Of a stretch of DNA of 64,000 bases, positions 47,214 through 59,764 are shown in pieces (the first letter of the stretch is position 1; each line of letters starts with the position of its first letter). Location: positions 376,574 through 440,573 of the forward strand of contig CP078014.1 in assembly GCA_020544565.1 (NCBI GenBank), read 5' to 3'. The notes beneath the pieces are model-generated. The model was given only the letters and a program-made list of their open reading frames with translations. It had not been told where the DNA came from and did no database searches. The stretch is from Bradyrhizobiaceae bacterium. Its GTDB lineage: Bacteria > Pseudomonadota > Alphaproteobacteria > Rhizobiales > Xanthobacteraceae. Made by a program: the position numbers and the translations under genes.

Positions 47214-49025
47214 TCAGAAGCGCCAGTAAAGCGGCACGATGAAAATGGTGACCAGGAGCCACCACACGGACAGCAGGAATCCGAATTTGGTGTAGTCGGA
47301 GAATTTGTACCCGCCGGGCCCCATCACCATCAGGTTCACCGGCGTGGCCACCGGCGTCAGCAGTGCGCCGTGAGAGCCGATGGCGACGCCGATGATGAAG
47401 GGCAACGGTGAGACGCCGATCTCCTGCGCGGTGGCGATCGCGATCGGGAAAAACAGGATCGCGGTCGCGGTATTGCTGATGACCGAGGTGACGGCGAGGG
47501 CGGCGAGGAACAGCCCGCCCAGCAGCGCCCGCGGACCGGCGTCGCCGAGAACGCCGATCAGCGTATCGGCGATCAGCCGTGCCGCTCCGGTCTCGGTCAT
47601 GGCCGCTCCGAGCGGGATCATGCCGCCGACCAGAAAGCACGTGTTCCAGTCGATGCCCTTGTAGGCTTGCGGAACGGTGAGGACGCCGAGCAGCACCATC
47701 AGTCCGGCGCAGACCAGCGCGGCAACGGCGCCGGGCACCCAGCCGGTCGCCAGCAGGACCACGAGCAAAGCGAGGATGGCCAGCGCTTCCTTGGCGCCGA
47801 GCCCGAGCGGCACCGCCTGCCGGCGAACCACATCGGGGGAATCGACCACCAGCACCTGCGGGTCGGCGAGATGCTTGTCGAGCGCCCCCCACGTCCCCTG
47901 CAGCAGCAGATGATCGCCGACGGCGAGCTTGTGCGGACCTTCGCCGACATCTTCGCCGCCGCGCTGCACCGCCAGCACCACGATGTCGCCGTCACGGGCG
48001 GCCATTCCCGCAAACGCCGTCTGGCCGATCAGTTTCGAGCGCGGTGGAATCACGACTTCCGCGAGGCCCGAATTGCGGTTGAACAGCGTATCCGCCAGAC
48101 CGCCTTTTTCCTCCTCGGCGCGGAACGCCAGATGCTTGTCGGTGGCGAGGCGCGCCGCCGCGTGGGCGTCGCCGCGGATCAGCAGTGCGTCGCCCTCGGC
48201 GAGGGTGCCGCGCGACAGCGGCTTGCCGCCGTCGCCGTCCGCAATCGCCACCAGCGAGAGGCCATCATAGCCCTTGAGGTCGATCGCCTCGCGCGCCGCC
48301 CCCACATAGGACGACGACGACCGCACCCGCAGCCGATGCAATCCGTCCTCGATCTTGTATTGCTCGACCAGCGTCTGGGCATGGGCGCTGAAATCGGGCG
48401 GCAGGGTATCGCCATTGCGGTGCGGCAGCAGGAAGCGATAGGTCAGCAGGATCAGCACCATGGTGCCGATCAGCATCGGCACGCCGGCGACCGCGAATTC
48501 GAAGAATCCGATCGGCCCGAACCCGGCATCCTCGGAGGCGTGGGAGGCGAGCACGTTCAGCGGCGCGCCGATCAGGGTCAGCATGACGCCGCCGTGGGTG
48601 GCGAAGCACATCGGCAGCAGCAGTTGCGACGTCGGGATGTTGAGGCGGACCGCCAGCACCACGCAGAGCGGCAAGAGCGCGGCGACGGTGGCGTTGACGC
48701 TGATGGTGGCGCAGAACAATGCCGCGAGCAGCATGATCAGGATCATCAGGCGGTTGCGGCTTTCGCCGGCATGCTTGATGACGATCTGTCCGGCCCATGT
48801 GGTGATGCCGGACGCTTCGAGGCCCGCTGCGATCACGAACAGGGAGGCGATCAGGACGACGGTGAGGTCGCCGAAGCCGCCGAGCGCCCGACTGGCCGGG
48901 AGGAGGCCGGTGAAATACAGCGCCAGCGATACGCCGATGGCGACGGCGACGGCCGGGATACGCCCCCAGATGAAAAGTCCGAGCGCGACGATAATCATAA
49001 CAAAAGTAATGGTGGCCCCGCTCAC
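47214..49025 (-). CDS. SLC13/CitMHS-type permease with TrkA-C (RCK_C) domains
   Basis: GGVMLTLIGAPLN; ISNTATAILF; TPVATPVNLMVMGPGGYKFSDY; two soluble RCK_C-like inserts. Confidence 0.85.
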   Translation of the reverse strand: MSGATITFVMIIVALGLFIWGRIPAVAVAIGVSLALYFTGLLPASRALGGFGDLTVVLIASLFVIAAGLEASGITTWAGQIVIKHAGESRNRLMILIMLLAALFCATISVNATVAALLPLCVVLAVRLNIPTSQLLLPMCFATHGGVMLTLIGAPLNVLASHASEDAGFGPIGFFEFAVAGVPMLIGTMVLILLTYRFLLPHRNGDTLPPDFSAHAQTLVEQYKIEDGLHRLRVRSSSSYVGAAREAIDLKGYDGLSLVAIADGDGGKPLSRGTLAEGDALLIRGDAHAAARLATDKHLAFRAEEEKGGLADTLFNRNSGLAEVVIPPRSKLIGQTAFAGMAARDGDIVVLAVQRGGEDVGEGPHKLAVGDHLLLQGTWGALDKHLADPQVLVVDSPDVVRRQAVPLGLGAKEALAILALLVVLLATGWVPGAVAALVCAGLMVLLGVLTVPQAYKGIDWNTCFLVGGMIPLGAAMTETGAARLIADTLIGVLGDAGPRALLGGLFLAALAVTSVISNTATAILFFPIAIATAQEIGVSPLPFIIGVAIGSHGALLTPVATPVNLMVMGPGGYKFSDYTKFGFLLSVWWLLVTIFIVPLYWRF

Positions 49026-49095
49026 TGCTTCCTCCTGTTTGCCCCGGCTGTGAGTTCGGCGTGTGAATGATCACCCGCCGCAAGAGCCGCTGATC

Positions 49096-49200
49096 CGGAG
49101 CCTTGTGCCCGTGATGGAATCAGAGGCGGGGCTTCCTGTTTTATTTTATTGCTTTTCCTTCAAGCGAAGCGGAATCCGCTTCGCTTGAAGACGCTTTGAA
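49096..49200 (-). repeat. Degenerate copy of the 10037-10143 RIME/Bru-RS-like element
   Basis: Reverse complement aaagcgtcttcaagcgaagcggattccgcttcgcttgaaggaaaagc...gattccatca...aaggctcc aligns with the first copy. Confidence 0.7.
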
Positions 49201-49215
49201 CAATCATTGCCCACG

Positions 49216-57514: not shown

Positions 57515-57645
57515 CCGTCTCGCTGGTGTGGGGGTTCGCAGGTTCGCTAAGGAGCGCGCTGCAAAATGAGGCGAACTTCGGATTCAGGACACGAGGACAA
57601 CACATCCATATTGCGCCGACGCCGGAGCAGAGGGCACGACAATGA
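57511..57645 (+). CDS. 44-codon ORF coupled by ATGA overlaps to both neighbours
   Basis: ATG 57511 overlaps ATPase TGA; its TGA 57643-57645 overlaps the acyltransferase ATG; GGAGG upstream. Confidence 0.35.
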   Translation: MTVSLVWGFAGSLRSALQNEANFGFRTRGQHIHIAPTPEQRARQ

Positions 57646-58583
57646 CGACGAAAACGTCCGACAATTATCGGAAACTGATCGATGCGGTGAAGGCGTTCCC
57701 GCCGATGCCGACCGCGGTGGCGCATCCTTGTGATGTGTCGTCGCTGGAGGGCGCGGTCGATGCCGCGCAGATGGGCATCATCGCACCGATCCTGGTCGGC
57801 CCGCGTCGCAAGATCGAGCAGGCCGCCAAGACGGCGAAGCTCGATATCTCGCCTTACGAGATCGTCGATGCCGAGCACAGCCACGAGGCTGCGGAGAAGG
57901 CGGTTCTGCTGATCCGGCAAGGTCGCGCCGAAATGCTGATGAAGGGATCGCTCAGCACCGACGAACTGCTGGGGGCGGTCGTCAAGAAGGACACCGGGCT
58001 GCGGACGGCGCGGCGGCTGAGCCATTGCTTCGTCATGGACGTGCCGAACTATCCGCACGTCCTGATCATCACCGACGCGGCGATCAACATCTTCCCAACT
58101 CTCGAGGACAAGGTCGACATCGTCCAGAACGCCATCGACCTCGCTCACGCGCTCAAGATCGAAAATCCGCATGTGGCGATCCTGTCGGCGATGGAGAAGG
58201 TCAATCCGAAGCTCCAGTCTACGGTCGAGGCTGCTGCGCTGTGCAAGATGGCCGATCGCGGCCAGATCAAGGGCGGCCTGCTCGATGGGCCGTTGGCGCT
58301 CGACAACGCCATCAGCCCCGAGGCGGCGCGGATCAAGGGCATCACCGGACCGGTCGCGGGGCATGCGCATATCCTGGTGGTGCCGGATCTCGAAGCCGGC
58401 AACGTGCTGGCGAAAAGCCTCAGCTTCCTGATGGCCGCGGAATCGGCCGGCGTGGTGCTCGGCGCGCGCGTTCCCATCACCCTGACCAGCCGTGCCGATT
58501 CCGTGCACAGCCGGCTCGCCTCCGCCGCCGTGGCGGCGCTGATCGCGCATCGGCGGCGGGAAAAAGCGGCGACGGGAGCCTAG
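57642..58583 (+). CDS. pta: Phosphate acetyl/butyryl-transferase (short PTA/PTB form)
   Basis: MLMKGSL; TDAAINIFP; LLDGPLALDNAIS; ILVVPDLEAGN; PITLTSRAD. Confidence 0.9.
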   Translation: MTTKTSDNYRKLIDAVKAFPPMPTAVAHPCDVSSLEGAVDAAQMGIIAPILVGPRRKIEQAAKTAKLDISPYEIVDAEHSHEAAEKAVLLIRQGRAEMLMKGSLSTDELLGAVVKKDTGLRTARRLSHCFVMDVPNYPHVLIITDAAINIFPTLEDKVDIVQNAIDLAHALKIENPHVAILSAMEKVNPKLQSTVEAAALCKMADRGQIKGGLLDGPLALDNAISPEAARIKGITGPVAGHAHILVVPDLEAGNVLAKSLSFLMAAESAGVVLGARVPITLTSRADSVHSRLASAAVAALIAHRRREKAATGA

Positions 58584-58585
58584 GG

Positions 58586-59764
58586 ATGAGCGACGCCATT
58601 CTGGTGCTGAATGCGGGCTCGTCGAGCCTGAAATTCACCGACTTCGTCGTCGTCGACGGCAAGCTCGAGATCAAGGCCGCCGGCAAGCTGGAGGAGCTGT
58701 ATGGCCGGGCGCGCTTTCAGGCGCGAGATGCCACGGGCGCGGTTGTCGGAAAGCGGGAGTGGCCCGAGGACGCGCCGCCGCGCCATGACGGGGCGCTCGC
58801 GTTCCTGTTCGACTGGCTGCGCGACTATTCGGGCGATGCGGTCGTCGCCGTCGGGCATCGCGTGGTGCACGGCGGAGAGAGCTATTCGACGCCGGTGATC
58901 CTCGATCCGGCCGTGGTGAAGACGCTTCACGCCCTTGATACGCTGGCGCCGCTGCATCAGCCGCACAATCTGCTGCCGGTCGACATCATCGCCGAGCAAC
59001 GCAAGGGGCTGCTGCAGATCGCCTGCTTCGATACGGCCTTTCATCAGACCGCGCCCAAGGTCTCGCAGGCGTTCGCGCTGCCGCCGGCCATCACCGAGCG
59101 CGGCGTGCGGCGCTACGGGTTTCATGGCTTGTCCTATGAATACATCGCGTCCGTGCTGGGCGACTATGATGCGCGGGCCGCCGCGGGCCGGACGATCGTC
59201 CTGCATCTCGGCAACGGCGCCACCATGTGCGCCATGCTCGACAGCAAGAGCGTGGCGTCGACTGCGGGTTTCACGGCGCTCGACGGGCTGCCGATGGGCA
59301 CGCGCTCCGGAACGCTCGATCCGGGGGTCGTGCTCTATCTCGTGCAGGAACTGGGGATGACCGGCAAGGAGATCGAGACGCTCCTGTATAAGGAGTCTGG
59401 TCTTCTCGGCGTCTCCGGCGTGTCCAGCGACATGCGCGCGCTTCTTGAAAGCGACAGTCCGCGGGCGAAGTTCGCGGTCGAGCTTTTTGTCTACCGCATC
59501 GTTCGCGAGGTCGGGTCGCTGGCCGCGGCGCTGGGCGGTCTTGACGCCCTTGTGTTCACGGCGGGCATCGGTGAACACGCCGCCGCAATCCGGGCGGCCG
59601 TCGCGCCGCACCTCGCCTGGCTCGGGCTTGAGCTCGATCCGGCCGCGAACGACAGGAACGGTCCCCGCATCAGCCGTGCGGACAGCCGCGTGGCGGCGTG
59701 GGTCATTCCGACCAACGAAGAACTGATGATCGCGAAACACTGCCTGACGATGATGGGTCGATAG
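58586..59764 (+). CDS. ackA: Acetate/propionate kinase
   Basis: LNAGSSSLKF; GHRVVHGG; APLHQP; FDTAFH; RRYGFHGLSY; FTAGIGE; PTNEE. Confidence 0.95.
   Translation: MSDAILVLNAGSSSLKFTDFVVVDGKLEIKAAGKLEELYGRARFQARDATGAVVGKREWPEDAPPRHDGALAFLFDWLRDYSGDAVVAVGHRVVHGGESYSTPVILDPAVVKTLHALDTLAPLHQPHNLLPVDIIAEQRKGLLQIACFDTAFHQTAPKVSQAFALPPAITERGVRRYGFHGLSYEYIASVLGDYDARAAAGRTIVLHLGNGATMCAMLDSKSVASTAGFTALDGLPMGTRSGTLDPGVVLYLVQELGMTGKEIETLLYKESGLLGVSGVSSDMRALLESDSPRAKFAVELFVYRIVREVGSLAAALGGLDALVFTAGIGEHAAAIRAAVAPHLAWLGLELDPAANDRNGPRISRADSRVAAWVIPTNEELMIAKHCLTMMGR

Follow-up and report, generated by a model that had tools for sequence, protein, structure and literature searches.

The region between positions 47214 and 59764 of the DNA analyzed here, a stretch of 64,000 nucleotides that we refer to as the window, probably represents a 12.5-kb shared module for the redox-neutral, oxygen-independent generation of ATP from hydroxy-amino acids, a reading that we favor without regarding it as secure. 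The window is high in GC (about 0.62-0.72), and, judging by its closest relatives and flanking synteny, it belongs to an Afipia-like bacterium of the Nitrobacteraceae. Eight genes make up the region in two divergent groups, which carry on one side pyruvate formate-lyase (PFL, encoded by pflB), its activase PflA, the deaminase RidA, a threonine ammonia-lyase (the dehydratase, ThrDH) and a permease, and on the other a P-type ATPase, a phosphate acyltransferase (Ptb) and an acetate/propionate kinase (Ack). Gene calls and order were confirmed, with all eight genes found where an earlier interpretation made from the letters alone (the sequence-only reading) had put them. The genes are as follows, with profile scores and cut-offs in bits.

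47214..49025, minus strand: YfbS-type permease of the SLC13/IT superfamily, 603 amino acids (Pfam CitMHS, Na_sulph_symp and TrkA_C)
49216..50445, minus strand: threonine ammonia-lyase, pyridoxal phosphate (PLP)-dependent, 409 amino acids (TIGR01127, 457 against a cut-off of 379)
50512..50889, minus strand: RidA enamine/imine deaminase (TIGR00004, 162 against 106)
50943..51800, minus strand: PflA activase, a radical SAM protein with a CxxxCxxC motif (TIGR02493, 302 against 232)
51808..54081, minus strand: pflB (pyruvate/2-oxobutyrate formate-lyase), a pseudogene (TIGR01255 in two pieces, 660 and 443)
54764..57514, plus strand: P2-type P-type ATPase, 916 amino acids (Pfam domains; TIGR01494 above cut-off)
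57642..58583, plus strand: short PTA_PTB phosphate acyltransferase, 313 amino acids (NF008852, 507 against 413; Pfam PTA_PTB)
58586..59764, plus strand: acetate/propionate kinase, 392 amino acids (TIGR00016, 350 against 293)

The match of the dehydratase to TIGR01127 spans residues 27-402 and includes one C-terminal regulatory domain. Over residues 5-319 its best solved relative is the catabolic TdcB (2gn0, E = 4e-83), ahead of the biosynthetic IlvA (1tdj), and the enzyme probably acts on serine as well. The activase is apparently intact, and its gene is separated from ridA by 53 bp. Because the ATG of the kinase lies only 2 nucleotides past the stop codon of ptb, these two genes are probably translationally coupled.

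From these identities we infer the substrates and the direction of flux. Threonine or serine would be taken up, most likely by the YfbS-type permease, and deaminated by the threonine ammonia-lyase, with an Fe-S serine dehydratase contributing as well in the versions of the module found in Beta- and Gammaproteobacteria. RidA would then hydrolyze the reactive enamine/imine to 2-oxobutyrate or pyruvate, and PFL, activated by its own activase, would cleave the 2-oxoacid to propionyl- or acetyl-CoA and formate. The Ptb-type transacylase would exchange the CoA for phosphate, and the kinase would convert the resulting acyl phosphate to propionate or acetate with the gain of one ATP. The P-type ATPase would probably turn part of this ATP into an ion gradient, possibly of Na+, which could keep the membrane and an ion-coupled permease energized once respiration stops. 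As pflB is broken in this strain, the remaining genes could be used in this manner only if another enzyme makes acyl-CoA from the 2-oxoacids.

The evidence that carries this reading is the recurrence of the gene set. Genomes were searched with the dehydratase, an intact PflB and the ATPase, and all eight proteins were then mapped onto the loci by tblastn. The set recurs, rearranged, in at least 10 further loci of Alpha-, Beta- and Gammaproteobacteria, so that the genes are indeed conserved together outside this lineage, a point on which the sequence-only reading had staked its own refutation. The principal loci are listed here, with MAG standing for metagenome-assembled genome.

L001, Afipia MAG: order as in the window, with an intact pfl
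L002, Hyphomicrobium: Permease-ATPase-Ptb-Ack-PflB-PflA-RidA-ThrDH, all eight on one strand
L003, Enterovirga: like L002, without the ATPase
L011, Ca. Contendobacter (Gammaproteobacteria): full set
L082, L230 and L233, betaproteobacterial or unclassified proteobacterial MAGs: full set
L006 and L007, a Rubrivivax MAG and a betaproteobacterial MAG: partial sets
L024, Amaricoccus: partial set with variant parts

Among the approximately 80 PFL loci surveyed, those whose PflB reaches at least 79% identity carry the dehydratase, RidA and the SLC13 permease, with the single exception of L010 (PflB 93%), which keeps PFL, Ptb, Ack and the ATPase and lacks the other three. Locus L007 holds the permease, ATPase, Ptb, a serine dehydratase (Sda), RidA and ThrDH, and is without PFL and Ack. 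In five betaproteobacterial, gammaproteobacterial or unclassified proteobacterial copies (L007, L011, L082, L230 and L233) this additional gene, an Fe-S L-serine ammonia-lyase, stands just upstream of ridA, between the gene for PflA (or Ptb) and that for RidA. The three copies that were scanned score ∼535 bits with TIGR00720 (cut-off 345), and the other two were recognized by tblastn. The clustering is far beyond chance, as one set of genes turns up again and again in genomes that are not related, and the set is a functional unit. Two alphaproteobacterial loci without PFL, L004 (11291-12931) and L005 (11290-12912), have a permease of the LctP family (lactate/glycolate) following a dehydratase of the cluster type, and L005 also has Mrp/Mnh-like antiporter subunits upstream. 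In the Amaricoccus locus (L024, 18-5951) a two-domain IlvA-type dehydratase is a nonorthologous replacement within the module.

We considered whether the adjacency might be fortuitous, with a mixed-acid branch (PFL, PflA, Pta and Ack) merely lying beside a biosynthetic IlvA-RidA pair and unrelated transporters. Biosynthetic enzymes do exist among the dehydratases with one ACT domain, and Ptb-Ack beside PflB-PflA without a dehydratase is common among the surveyed PFL loci, in Cupriavidus, Variovorax, Acidobacteriota and Microvirga. Yet the eight-gene set recurs in several classes, in different orders and also on a single strand, the intergenic gaps are short, ptb and ack are seemingly coupled, the gene for the serine dehydratase is found between pflA and ridA, and the closest solved structure to the dehydratase is a catabolic enzyme, which together make an accidental arrangement very improbable. 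Even harder to credit is an assimilatory direction, in which Ack and Ptb would activate acetate or propionate and PFL would condense the acyl-CoA with formate to give pyruvate or 2-oxobutyrate. E. coli PFL and TdcE are described as reversible (PMC7476758), but the dehydratases are irreversible and, together with RidA, would have no role in such a pathway, although these are the genes most tightly linked to this PFL clade.

The module that we favor most closely resembles the enterobacterial tdcABCDEFG operon, which, in the account of Hesslinger, Fairhurst and Sawers (1998) as relayed by PMC8262752, converts L-threonine and L-serine anaerobically to propionate or acetate, formate and ATP. Compared with the proteins of E. 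coli K-12, the dehydratase is 44% identical to TdcB, RidA 44% to TdcF, PFL (the L001 allele) 58.5% to TdcE and 63% to PflB, the kinase 38% to TdcD, and the Sda of L011 45% to TdcG. The reaction logic is thus the same and the enzyme families match, and with TdcB, TdcF, TdcE and TdcD all represented, and phosphotransacylase and activase inside the cluster, the proposal that every tdc step has a counterpart here is borne out. So is the accompanying proposal that the parts differ. TdcB lacks the C-terminal regulatory domain of the dehydratase, which does not match the TdcB-type size (∼330 amino acids, no regulatory domain) and scores 358 bits with the TdcB model NF006389 (cut-off 453). The kinase falls below the cut-off of the TdcD-specific model NF009045 and is therefore a member of the TIGR00016 family rather than a TdcD orthologue. 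A YfbS-type permease takes the place of the HAAAP symporter TdcC, of which no homologue was found by tblastn in the window or in any cluster locus, and the same search found no FocA homologue in the window or the cluster loci. Neither TdcA nor TdcR is part of the cluster, with tblastn giving a single weak match to TdcA (identity 26%), which lies ∼8 kb past pflA in the Amaricoccus locus L024, and the Fe-S L-serine dehydratase (TdcG) is absent from the window. The cluster has its own activase and Ptb-type phosphotransacylase, whereas E. coli borrows PflA and Pta, and it has an attached P-type ATPase (a V-type ATPase instead in Amaricoccus). The order of the genes bears no relation to that of tdc, the hosts are environmental Proteobacteria that respire, and pflB of the window is a pseudogene. 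By these features the system would work like tdc while missing several of the traits that define membership of the tdc operon proper.

Comparison with the E. coli mixed-acid genes (focA-pflB-pflA plus pta-ackA) gives a similar picture. PFL is slightly closer to PflB than to TdcE, and a core of PFL, activase, phosphotransacylase and kinase without dehydratases is common among the relatives of the cluster, but FocA is missing, the phosphotransacylase is of the short PTA_PTB form in contrast to the three-domain Pta, and the dehydratase, RidA and the permease are additional. In the literature searched, we found no description of this cluster in Afipia, Bradyrhizobiaceae or Contendobacter, nor of an operon of PFL, RidA and dehydratase outside enterics and Firmicutes. 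The cluster is a variant of the tdc-type system in which the permease is an orphan and the ion pump is unusual, the core chemistry being already known (PMC8262752).

In the organism of the window, the PFL step of this pathway is broken. A single in-frame TAA at 52738-52740 interrupts pflB ∼25 codons past the catalytic Cys-Cys pair, with the RVSGY glycyl-radical loop on the other side of the stop, which confirms the lesion implied when the sequence-only reading spoke of a repaired PFL. The codon at this position is TAC, TAT or TTC in relatives and specifies Tyr or Phe. Both motifs are present and the two TIGR01255 pieces together match the model from end to end, but an intact glycyl-radical formate-lyase is encoded in other copies of the cluster (L001, L002, L003, L011 and L082) and not in the window. 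The split pflB also appears among the gene calls of the 4.13-Mb source contig and of a Logan contig. A contig from a freshwater metagenome (X1, 72× depth) is identical to the window across the TAA, and the same allele is present in a sediment metagenome (X2). In organism A (X6) and in part of X3 the base at this site is G, giving Tyr. Two other accounts of the stop were discarded: an assembly error, as the same base occurs in independent assemblies at up to 72× depth, and selenocysteine or programmed readthrough, as this is a TAA codon in a place where Tyr or Phe is conserved.

A second lesion is found in a sister strain (L091, 98.3% nucleotide identity), in which a clean 3,601-bp deletion of window positions 51027-54627 (joint at 9411/9412) takes out all of pflB, most of pflA and an FNR-like box upstream of pflB. 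Metagenome X2 contains the joint of this deletion as well as the full-length TAA allele, and two PFL-null alleles therefore coexist in nature. We do not claim these as two provably independent losses, since the position of the nonsense codon lies within the deleted segment. Compared with the intact L001 copy, pflB of the window has a dN/dS of 0.08 and no further lesion, which argues that its inactivation is recent. For the permease, dehydratase, RidA, ATPase, transacylase and kinase, dN/dS between the two PFL-less strains is 0-0.055, so that the PFL step is dead in this strain while the remaining six genes are retained under strong purifying selection. Hence, of the proposed substrate-level ATP pathway for anoxic survival, the gene set and its conservation are supported, but the pathway cannot run through PFL in this organism.

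This pattern of loss would be expected if the genes served these aerobes in a function independent of PFL. Permease, dehydratase and RidA would then catabolize threonine and serine whatever the oxygen level, the acyl-CoA would come from a 2-oxoacid dehydrogenase or ferredoxin oxidoreductase encoded elsewhere, Ptb-Ack would form an overflow or substrate-level phosphorylation branch under microoxia, and PFL would be optional and easily lost. We take this alternative seriously but consider it unlikely. It accounts for the loss of PFL by both nonsense codon and deletion in one species with the six other genes so well preserved, for L007 with neither PFL nor Ack, and for L004 with only the SLC13 permease, ThrDH and LctP, and pta-ackA of B. 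diazoefficiens respond within the microaerobic network (PMC10888616). On the other hand, pflB-pflA lies inside the operon, between ack and ridA, in most complete copies and is highly conserved, with a dN/dS of 0.08-0.11 in lineages with intact copies, and the losses may be merely recent. A PFL-independent role also leaves unexplained why loci with a PflB of at least 79% identity carry the dehydratase set.

The permease has two transporter halves and a central TrkA_C domain, and aligns over its full length with E. coli YfbS (32% identity over 616 residues, E = 1e-75), an orphan transporter that likewise has central TrkA_C domains. With the DASS model TIGR00785 it reaches 143 bits against a cut-off of 198.6, and with Pfam CitMHS and Na_sulph_symp it is above thresholds. 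Within the IT superfamily, YfbS-type permease is a more fitting description of the protein than DASS carrier. It is present in every locus with a cluster-type dehydratase and PFL, and also in L004 (dehydratase and LctP only), is retained in the pfl-deleted strain L091, and is absent from ∼70 PFL loci without ThrDH and from L010. The permease therefore tracks the dehydratase and not PFL, a distribution that favors uptake over export of formate or acid and makes the protein most likely a candidate importer of threonine or serine. Of the two genes, only that of the present cluster is embedded in a pathway that suggests a substrate. In Dickeya and Pectobacterium, yfbS was induced 3.5-4.6-fold by oxygen limitation in an array study (PMC3349551). 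Separately, we observed that yfbS of E. coli K-12 (L254, 2409520-2414672) lies 2 kb upstream of ackA-pta.

The superfamily to which the permease belongs carries di- and tricarboxylates, sulfate and similar anions, which suggests a different substrate for the whole cluster: an anionic hydroxy-amino acid or related compound, such as 3-hydroxyaspartate or another dicarboxylate, imported in the DASS manner and deaminated by the PLP enzyme. Models for fold-type II hydroxyaspartate and hydroxyectoine enzymes indeed score strongly with the dehydratase, although below threshold. We judge this decidedly unlikely, as TIGR01127 passes its cut-off while the hydroxyaspartate and EutB models stay far below theirs, the cluster includes a dedicated Fe-S L-serine dehydratase in five loci, the corresponding place in Amaricoccus is taken by a classical two-domain enzyme of the IlvA type, and RidA and PFL suit 2-aminocrotonate/2-aminoacrylate and 2-oxobutyrate/pyruvate, respectively. 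Threonine and serine thus remain the substrates that we favor.

The ATPase carries the DKTGT phosphorylation motif and PEGL(P) in M4, together with E1-E2 and HAD domains and the N- and C-terminal domains of cation ATPases. Among solved structures it is closest to P2A Ca2+-ATPases, human SPCA1 (8iwp) and Listeria LMCA1 (6zhf), with E = 1e-156 to 1e-161, and it has DKTGT, PEGLP and the ten-helix layout in common with these and with SERCA1a. The ion site is different. Alignment to SPCA1 shows that only the M4 glutamate is kept among the acidic Ca2+-site residues, with SERCA Glu-771 replaced by Gln in M5, Asp-800 (Asp-742 in SPCA1) by Ser in M6 and Glu-908 by Gln in M8, and this Gln/Ser/Gln signature is invariant in ∼83 homologues. 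No NCBIfam equivalog cut-off is reached, the Ca2+-ATPase models TIGR01522 and TIGR01116 included, so that the protein has the features of the P-type ATPase superfamily and lacks the Ca2+ ligands of the P2A group. Its ion site is neutral, and it is probably a monovalent-cation pump. The distinct subfamily to which it belongs (76-93% identical; loci L175-L253) is found in Alphaproteobacteria, Verrucomicrobiota, Acidobacteriota, Myxococcota, Eremiobacterota, Chromatiaceae and others, where the commonest neighbors are PPK2 (43 of 79 loci) and a cotransporter for Na/Pi (27 of 79). In 7 of 77 loci, against 1.3 expected, a FixK/FNR box with no more than one mismatch occurs within 450 bp upstream of the ATPase gene, and alignment of the 77 loci revealed no common leader upstream of it. 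Some Bradyrhizobium copies are among those with FixK boxes upstream. In Amaricoccus (L024) the place of the P-type ATPase is taken by subunits B and I of a V-type ATPase, encoded after the SLC13 gene on the same strand, another nonorthologous replacement. From the neutral site, the cotransporter neighbors, the FixK boxes and this replacement, we infer an ATP-driven monovalent-ion pump that partners ion-coupled carriers under low oxygen. A role in acid or cation stress, as first suggested, finds no specific support, and the other contexts of the subfamily point to a pump working with Na+-coupled symporters.

Induction of the module at low oxygen would be in keeping with the enzymes themselves, since PFL and its activase are oxygen-sensitive, and we count the NnrS gene next to the cluster towards the same link. 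Two elements lie in the 682-bp spacer on the pflB side.

54084..54139, minus strand: degenerate 16-nucleotide tandem repeat abutting the pflB start codon (TRF, 3.5 copies)
54352..54365, minus strand: FNR/FixK-like box TTGATGTAGGTCAG (read towards pflB), with two mismatches to TTGAT-N4-ATCAA

The box is ∼277 nucleotides upstream of the pflB ATG and ∼405 nucleotides upstream of that of the ATPase. As there are 27 two-mismatch FNR/FixK sites in the window and ∼0.1-0.3 would be expected in the spacer, the box alone is no more than chance would give. An orthologous site, TTGATTTAAGTCAG, is nevertheless present in L001 within a conserved block, and a perfect box, TTGATCGAGATCAA, is found 160 bp upstream of the first gene of the Enterovirga operon. 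The candidate box of the sequence-only reading has a conserved equivalent in the sister Afipia and a perfect one in Enterovirga, but with its two mismatches is not significant by itself. In a sludge metatranscriptome, low-depth contigs match the window exactly in part of the genes for permease and ATPase and of the pflB start, and a further contig spans the pflB leader up to 54274 with a few differences, which is weakly compatible with a transcription start near the box. None of the RNA runs holds more than 7% of the sequence words.

The tandem repeat, TGAATGCTTGCTTTTC, reaches the pflB ATG, its last unit containing the start codon. The L001 version (6277-6367) has 5.7 near-perfect copies (TRF) compared with the 3.5 degenerate ones of the window, and L010 has at about 9950-10003 a period-16 'CTGAA' repeat of different sequence. 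With a copy number that differs between strains, the repeat could tune translation or transcription. On the other side of the spacer, the ATPase leader contains a palindrome, CTGGATATTTTCCAG, at 54637-54651 and a terminator-like hairpin with a T run at 54695-54713. Both are conserved in L001 and L010 and not in other genera, and neither has an Rfam match; a scan of 46-62 kb with E values up to 1 for riboswitches or other known RNAs in the leaders returned only a tRNA.

The copies of the cluster in Alpha-, Beta- and Gammaproteobacteria share 61-83% amino acid identity. Since identity is this high across classes and the named Afipia species lack the cluster, it is a horizontally shared module of environmental Proteobacteria that was acquired by this lineage and is accessory within Afipia. 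The view that it had been assembled independently in an alphaproteobacterium therefore does not hold for the lineage, but does hold in the sense of a construction independent of tdc. The features that bound the cluster are these.

46977..47052, plus strand: tRNA-Cys (GCA), found by ARAGORN and as Rfam tRNA, 161 bases from the SLC13 stop codon
47155..47182, plus strand: terminator-like hairpin followed by a T run, 3' of the tRNA-Cys and directed towards the end of the SLC13 gene
about 59816-61030, convergent with ack: NnrS (NO-response membrane protein family)

Synteny with A. broomeae, A. clevelandensis, A. massiliensis and A. birgiae ends at ∼46865, 110 bp before the tRNA-Cys, and the syntenic site in these four species has neither the tRNA-Cys nor the cluster. 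GC dips slightly over the cluster (0.62-0.64, compared with 0.65-0.68 in the flanks). A second copy of the last 23 nucleotides of the tRNA-Cys, which would mark an att duplication, was not found in the window, and no integrase was detected among the flanking open reading frames (ORFs) scanned (NnrS, a substrate-binding protein and one ORF without a Pfam match). The far border of an island may lie beyond the window. The region is thus accessory and, as had been proposed, begins at a tRNA, close to which synteny breaks, but a classical tRNA-integrated island is not supported by repeat or integrase. In the sister strain L091, three genes (a GntR-aminotransferase fusion, a tautomerase and a hydrolase) are added between NnrS and ack. 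Elsewhere in the window, a flagellar gene cluster fills the first 26 kb and contains, at 17134-20787, an ORF of 1,217 amino acids with good coding statistics and no Pfam match (local GC 0.70-0.72). The stretch of lowest GC (0.60-0.62), which may be another acquired segment, contains at 30320-31897 an ORF whose product has Anp1 and DXD glycosyltransferase domains.

Several observations weigh against an oxygen-independent ATP-generating module as we propose it. The continued selection on the other genes although PFL is inactive or deleted suggests that dehydratase, permease, Ptb-Ack and ATPase are valuable without PFL and perhaps without anoxia. The parts of the module are separable, L010 being without the dehydratase part and L007 without PFL and Ack, and the Thr/Ser cluster is present at only 4 of the 79 ATPase loci, the other 75 lying elsewhere. 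No formate channel or formate dehydrogenase is encoded in the cluster, and the carriers of the DASS/IT superfamily are known to transport anionic substrates and not neutral amino acids. With one ATP per substrate, the cost of the pump would leave little net gain if uptake is ion-coupled. On the regulatory side, the beta- and gammaproteobacterial copies have no canonical FNR box, Contendobacter having only TTGAT-N8-ATCAA, tblastn with E. coli FNR found no FNR/FixK regulator in the window or the cluster loci, and the RNA evidence consists of only a few low-depth metatranscriptome contigs.

Taken to its full extent, the joint reading would be of a self-contained, mobile 'anoxia survival kit' that combines YfbS-type importers (or precursor/product exchangers) of hydroxy-amino acids, a monovalent-ion pump with a neutral site, and the one-ATP cleavage of threonine and serine, an idea that we offer tentatively and think doubtful as a whole. 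If true, the permease role would be the first function for the widespread orphan YfbS-type family, the ATPase would pump Na+ or another monovalent ion at low oxygen, energizing Na+-coupled carriers such as the SLC13 permease and Na/Pi cotransporters, and Proteobacteria of soil and water that do not ferment would persist through anoxia by the redox-neutral, one-ATP cleavage of threonine and serine, with the PFL step repeatedly gained and lost. The module in any case provides a testable context for two orphan families, the YfbS-type permeases and a widely transferred subfamily of P-type ATPases. Because pflB is a recent pseudogene here, annotation pipelines that deduce fermentation from the presence of genes would be wrong for this strain. 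In a broader sense, if the reading is correct, nominally aerobic Proteobacteria of soil, sludge and freshwater, with Afipia, Hyphomicrobium, Enterovirga, Burkholderiales and Ca. Contendobacter as hosts, would make ATP from threonine and serine without an electron acceptor and release propionate, acetate, formate and ammonium, which would bear on how they survive when biofilms, sediments or activated sludge turn anoxic for a time.

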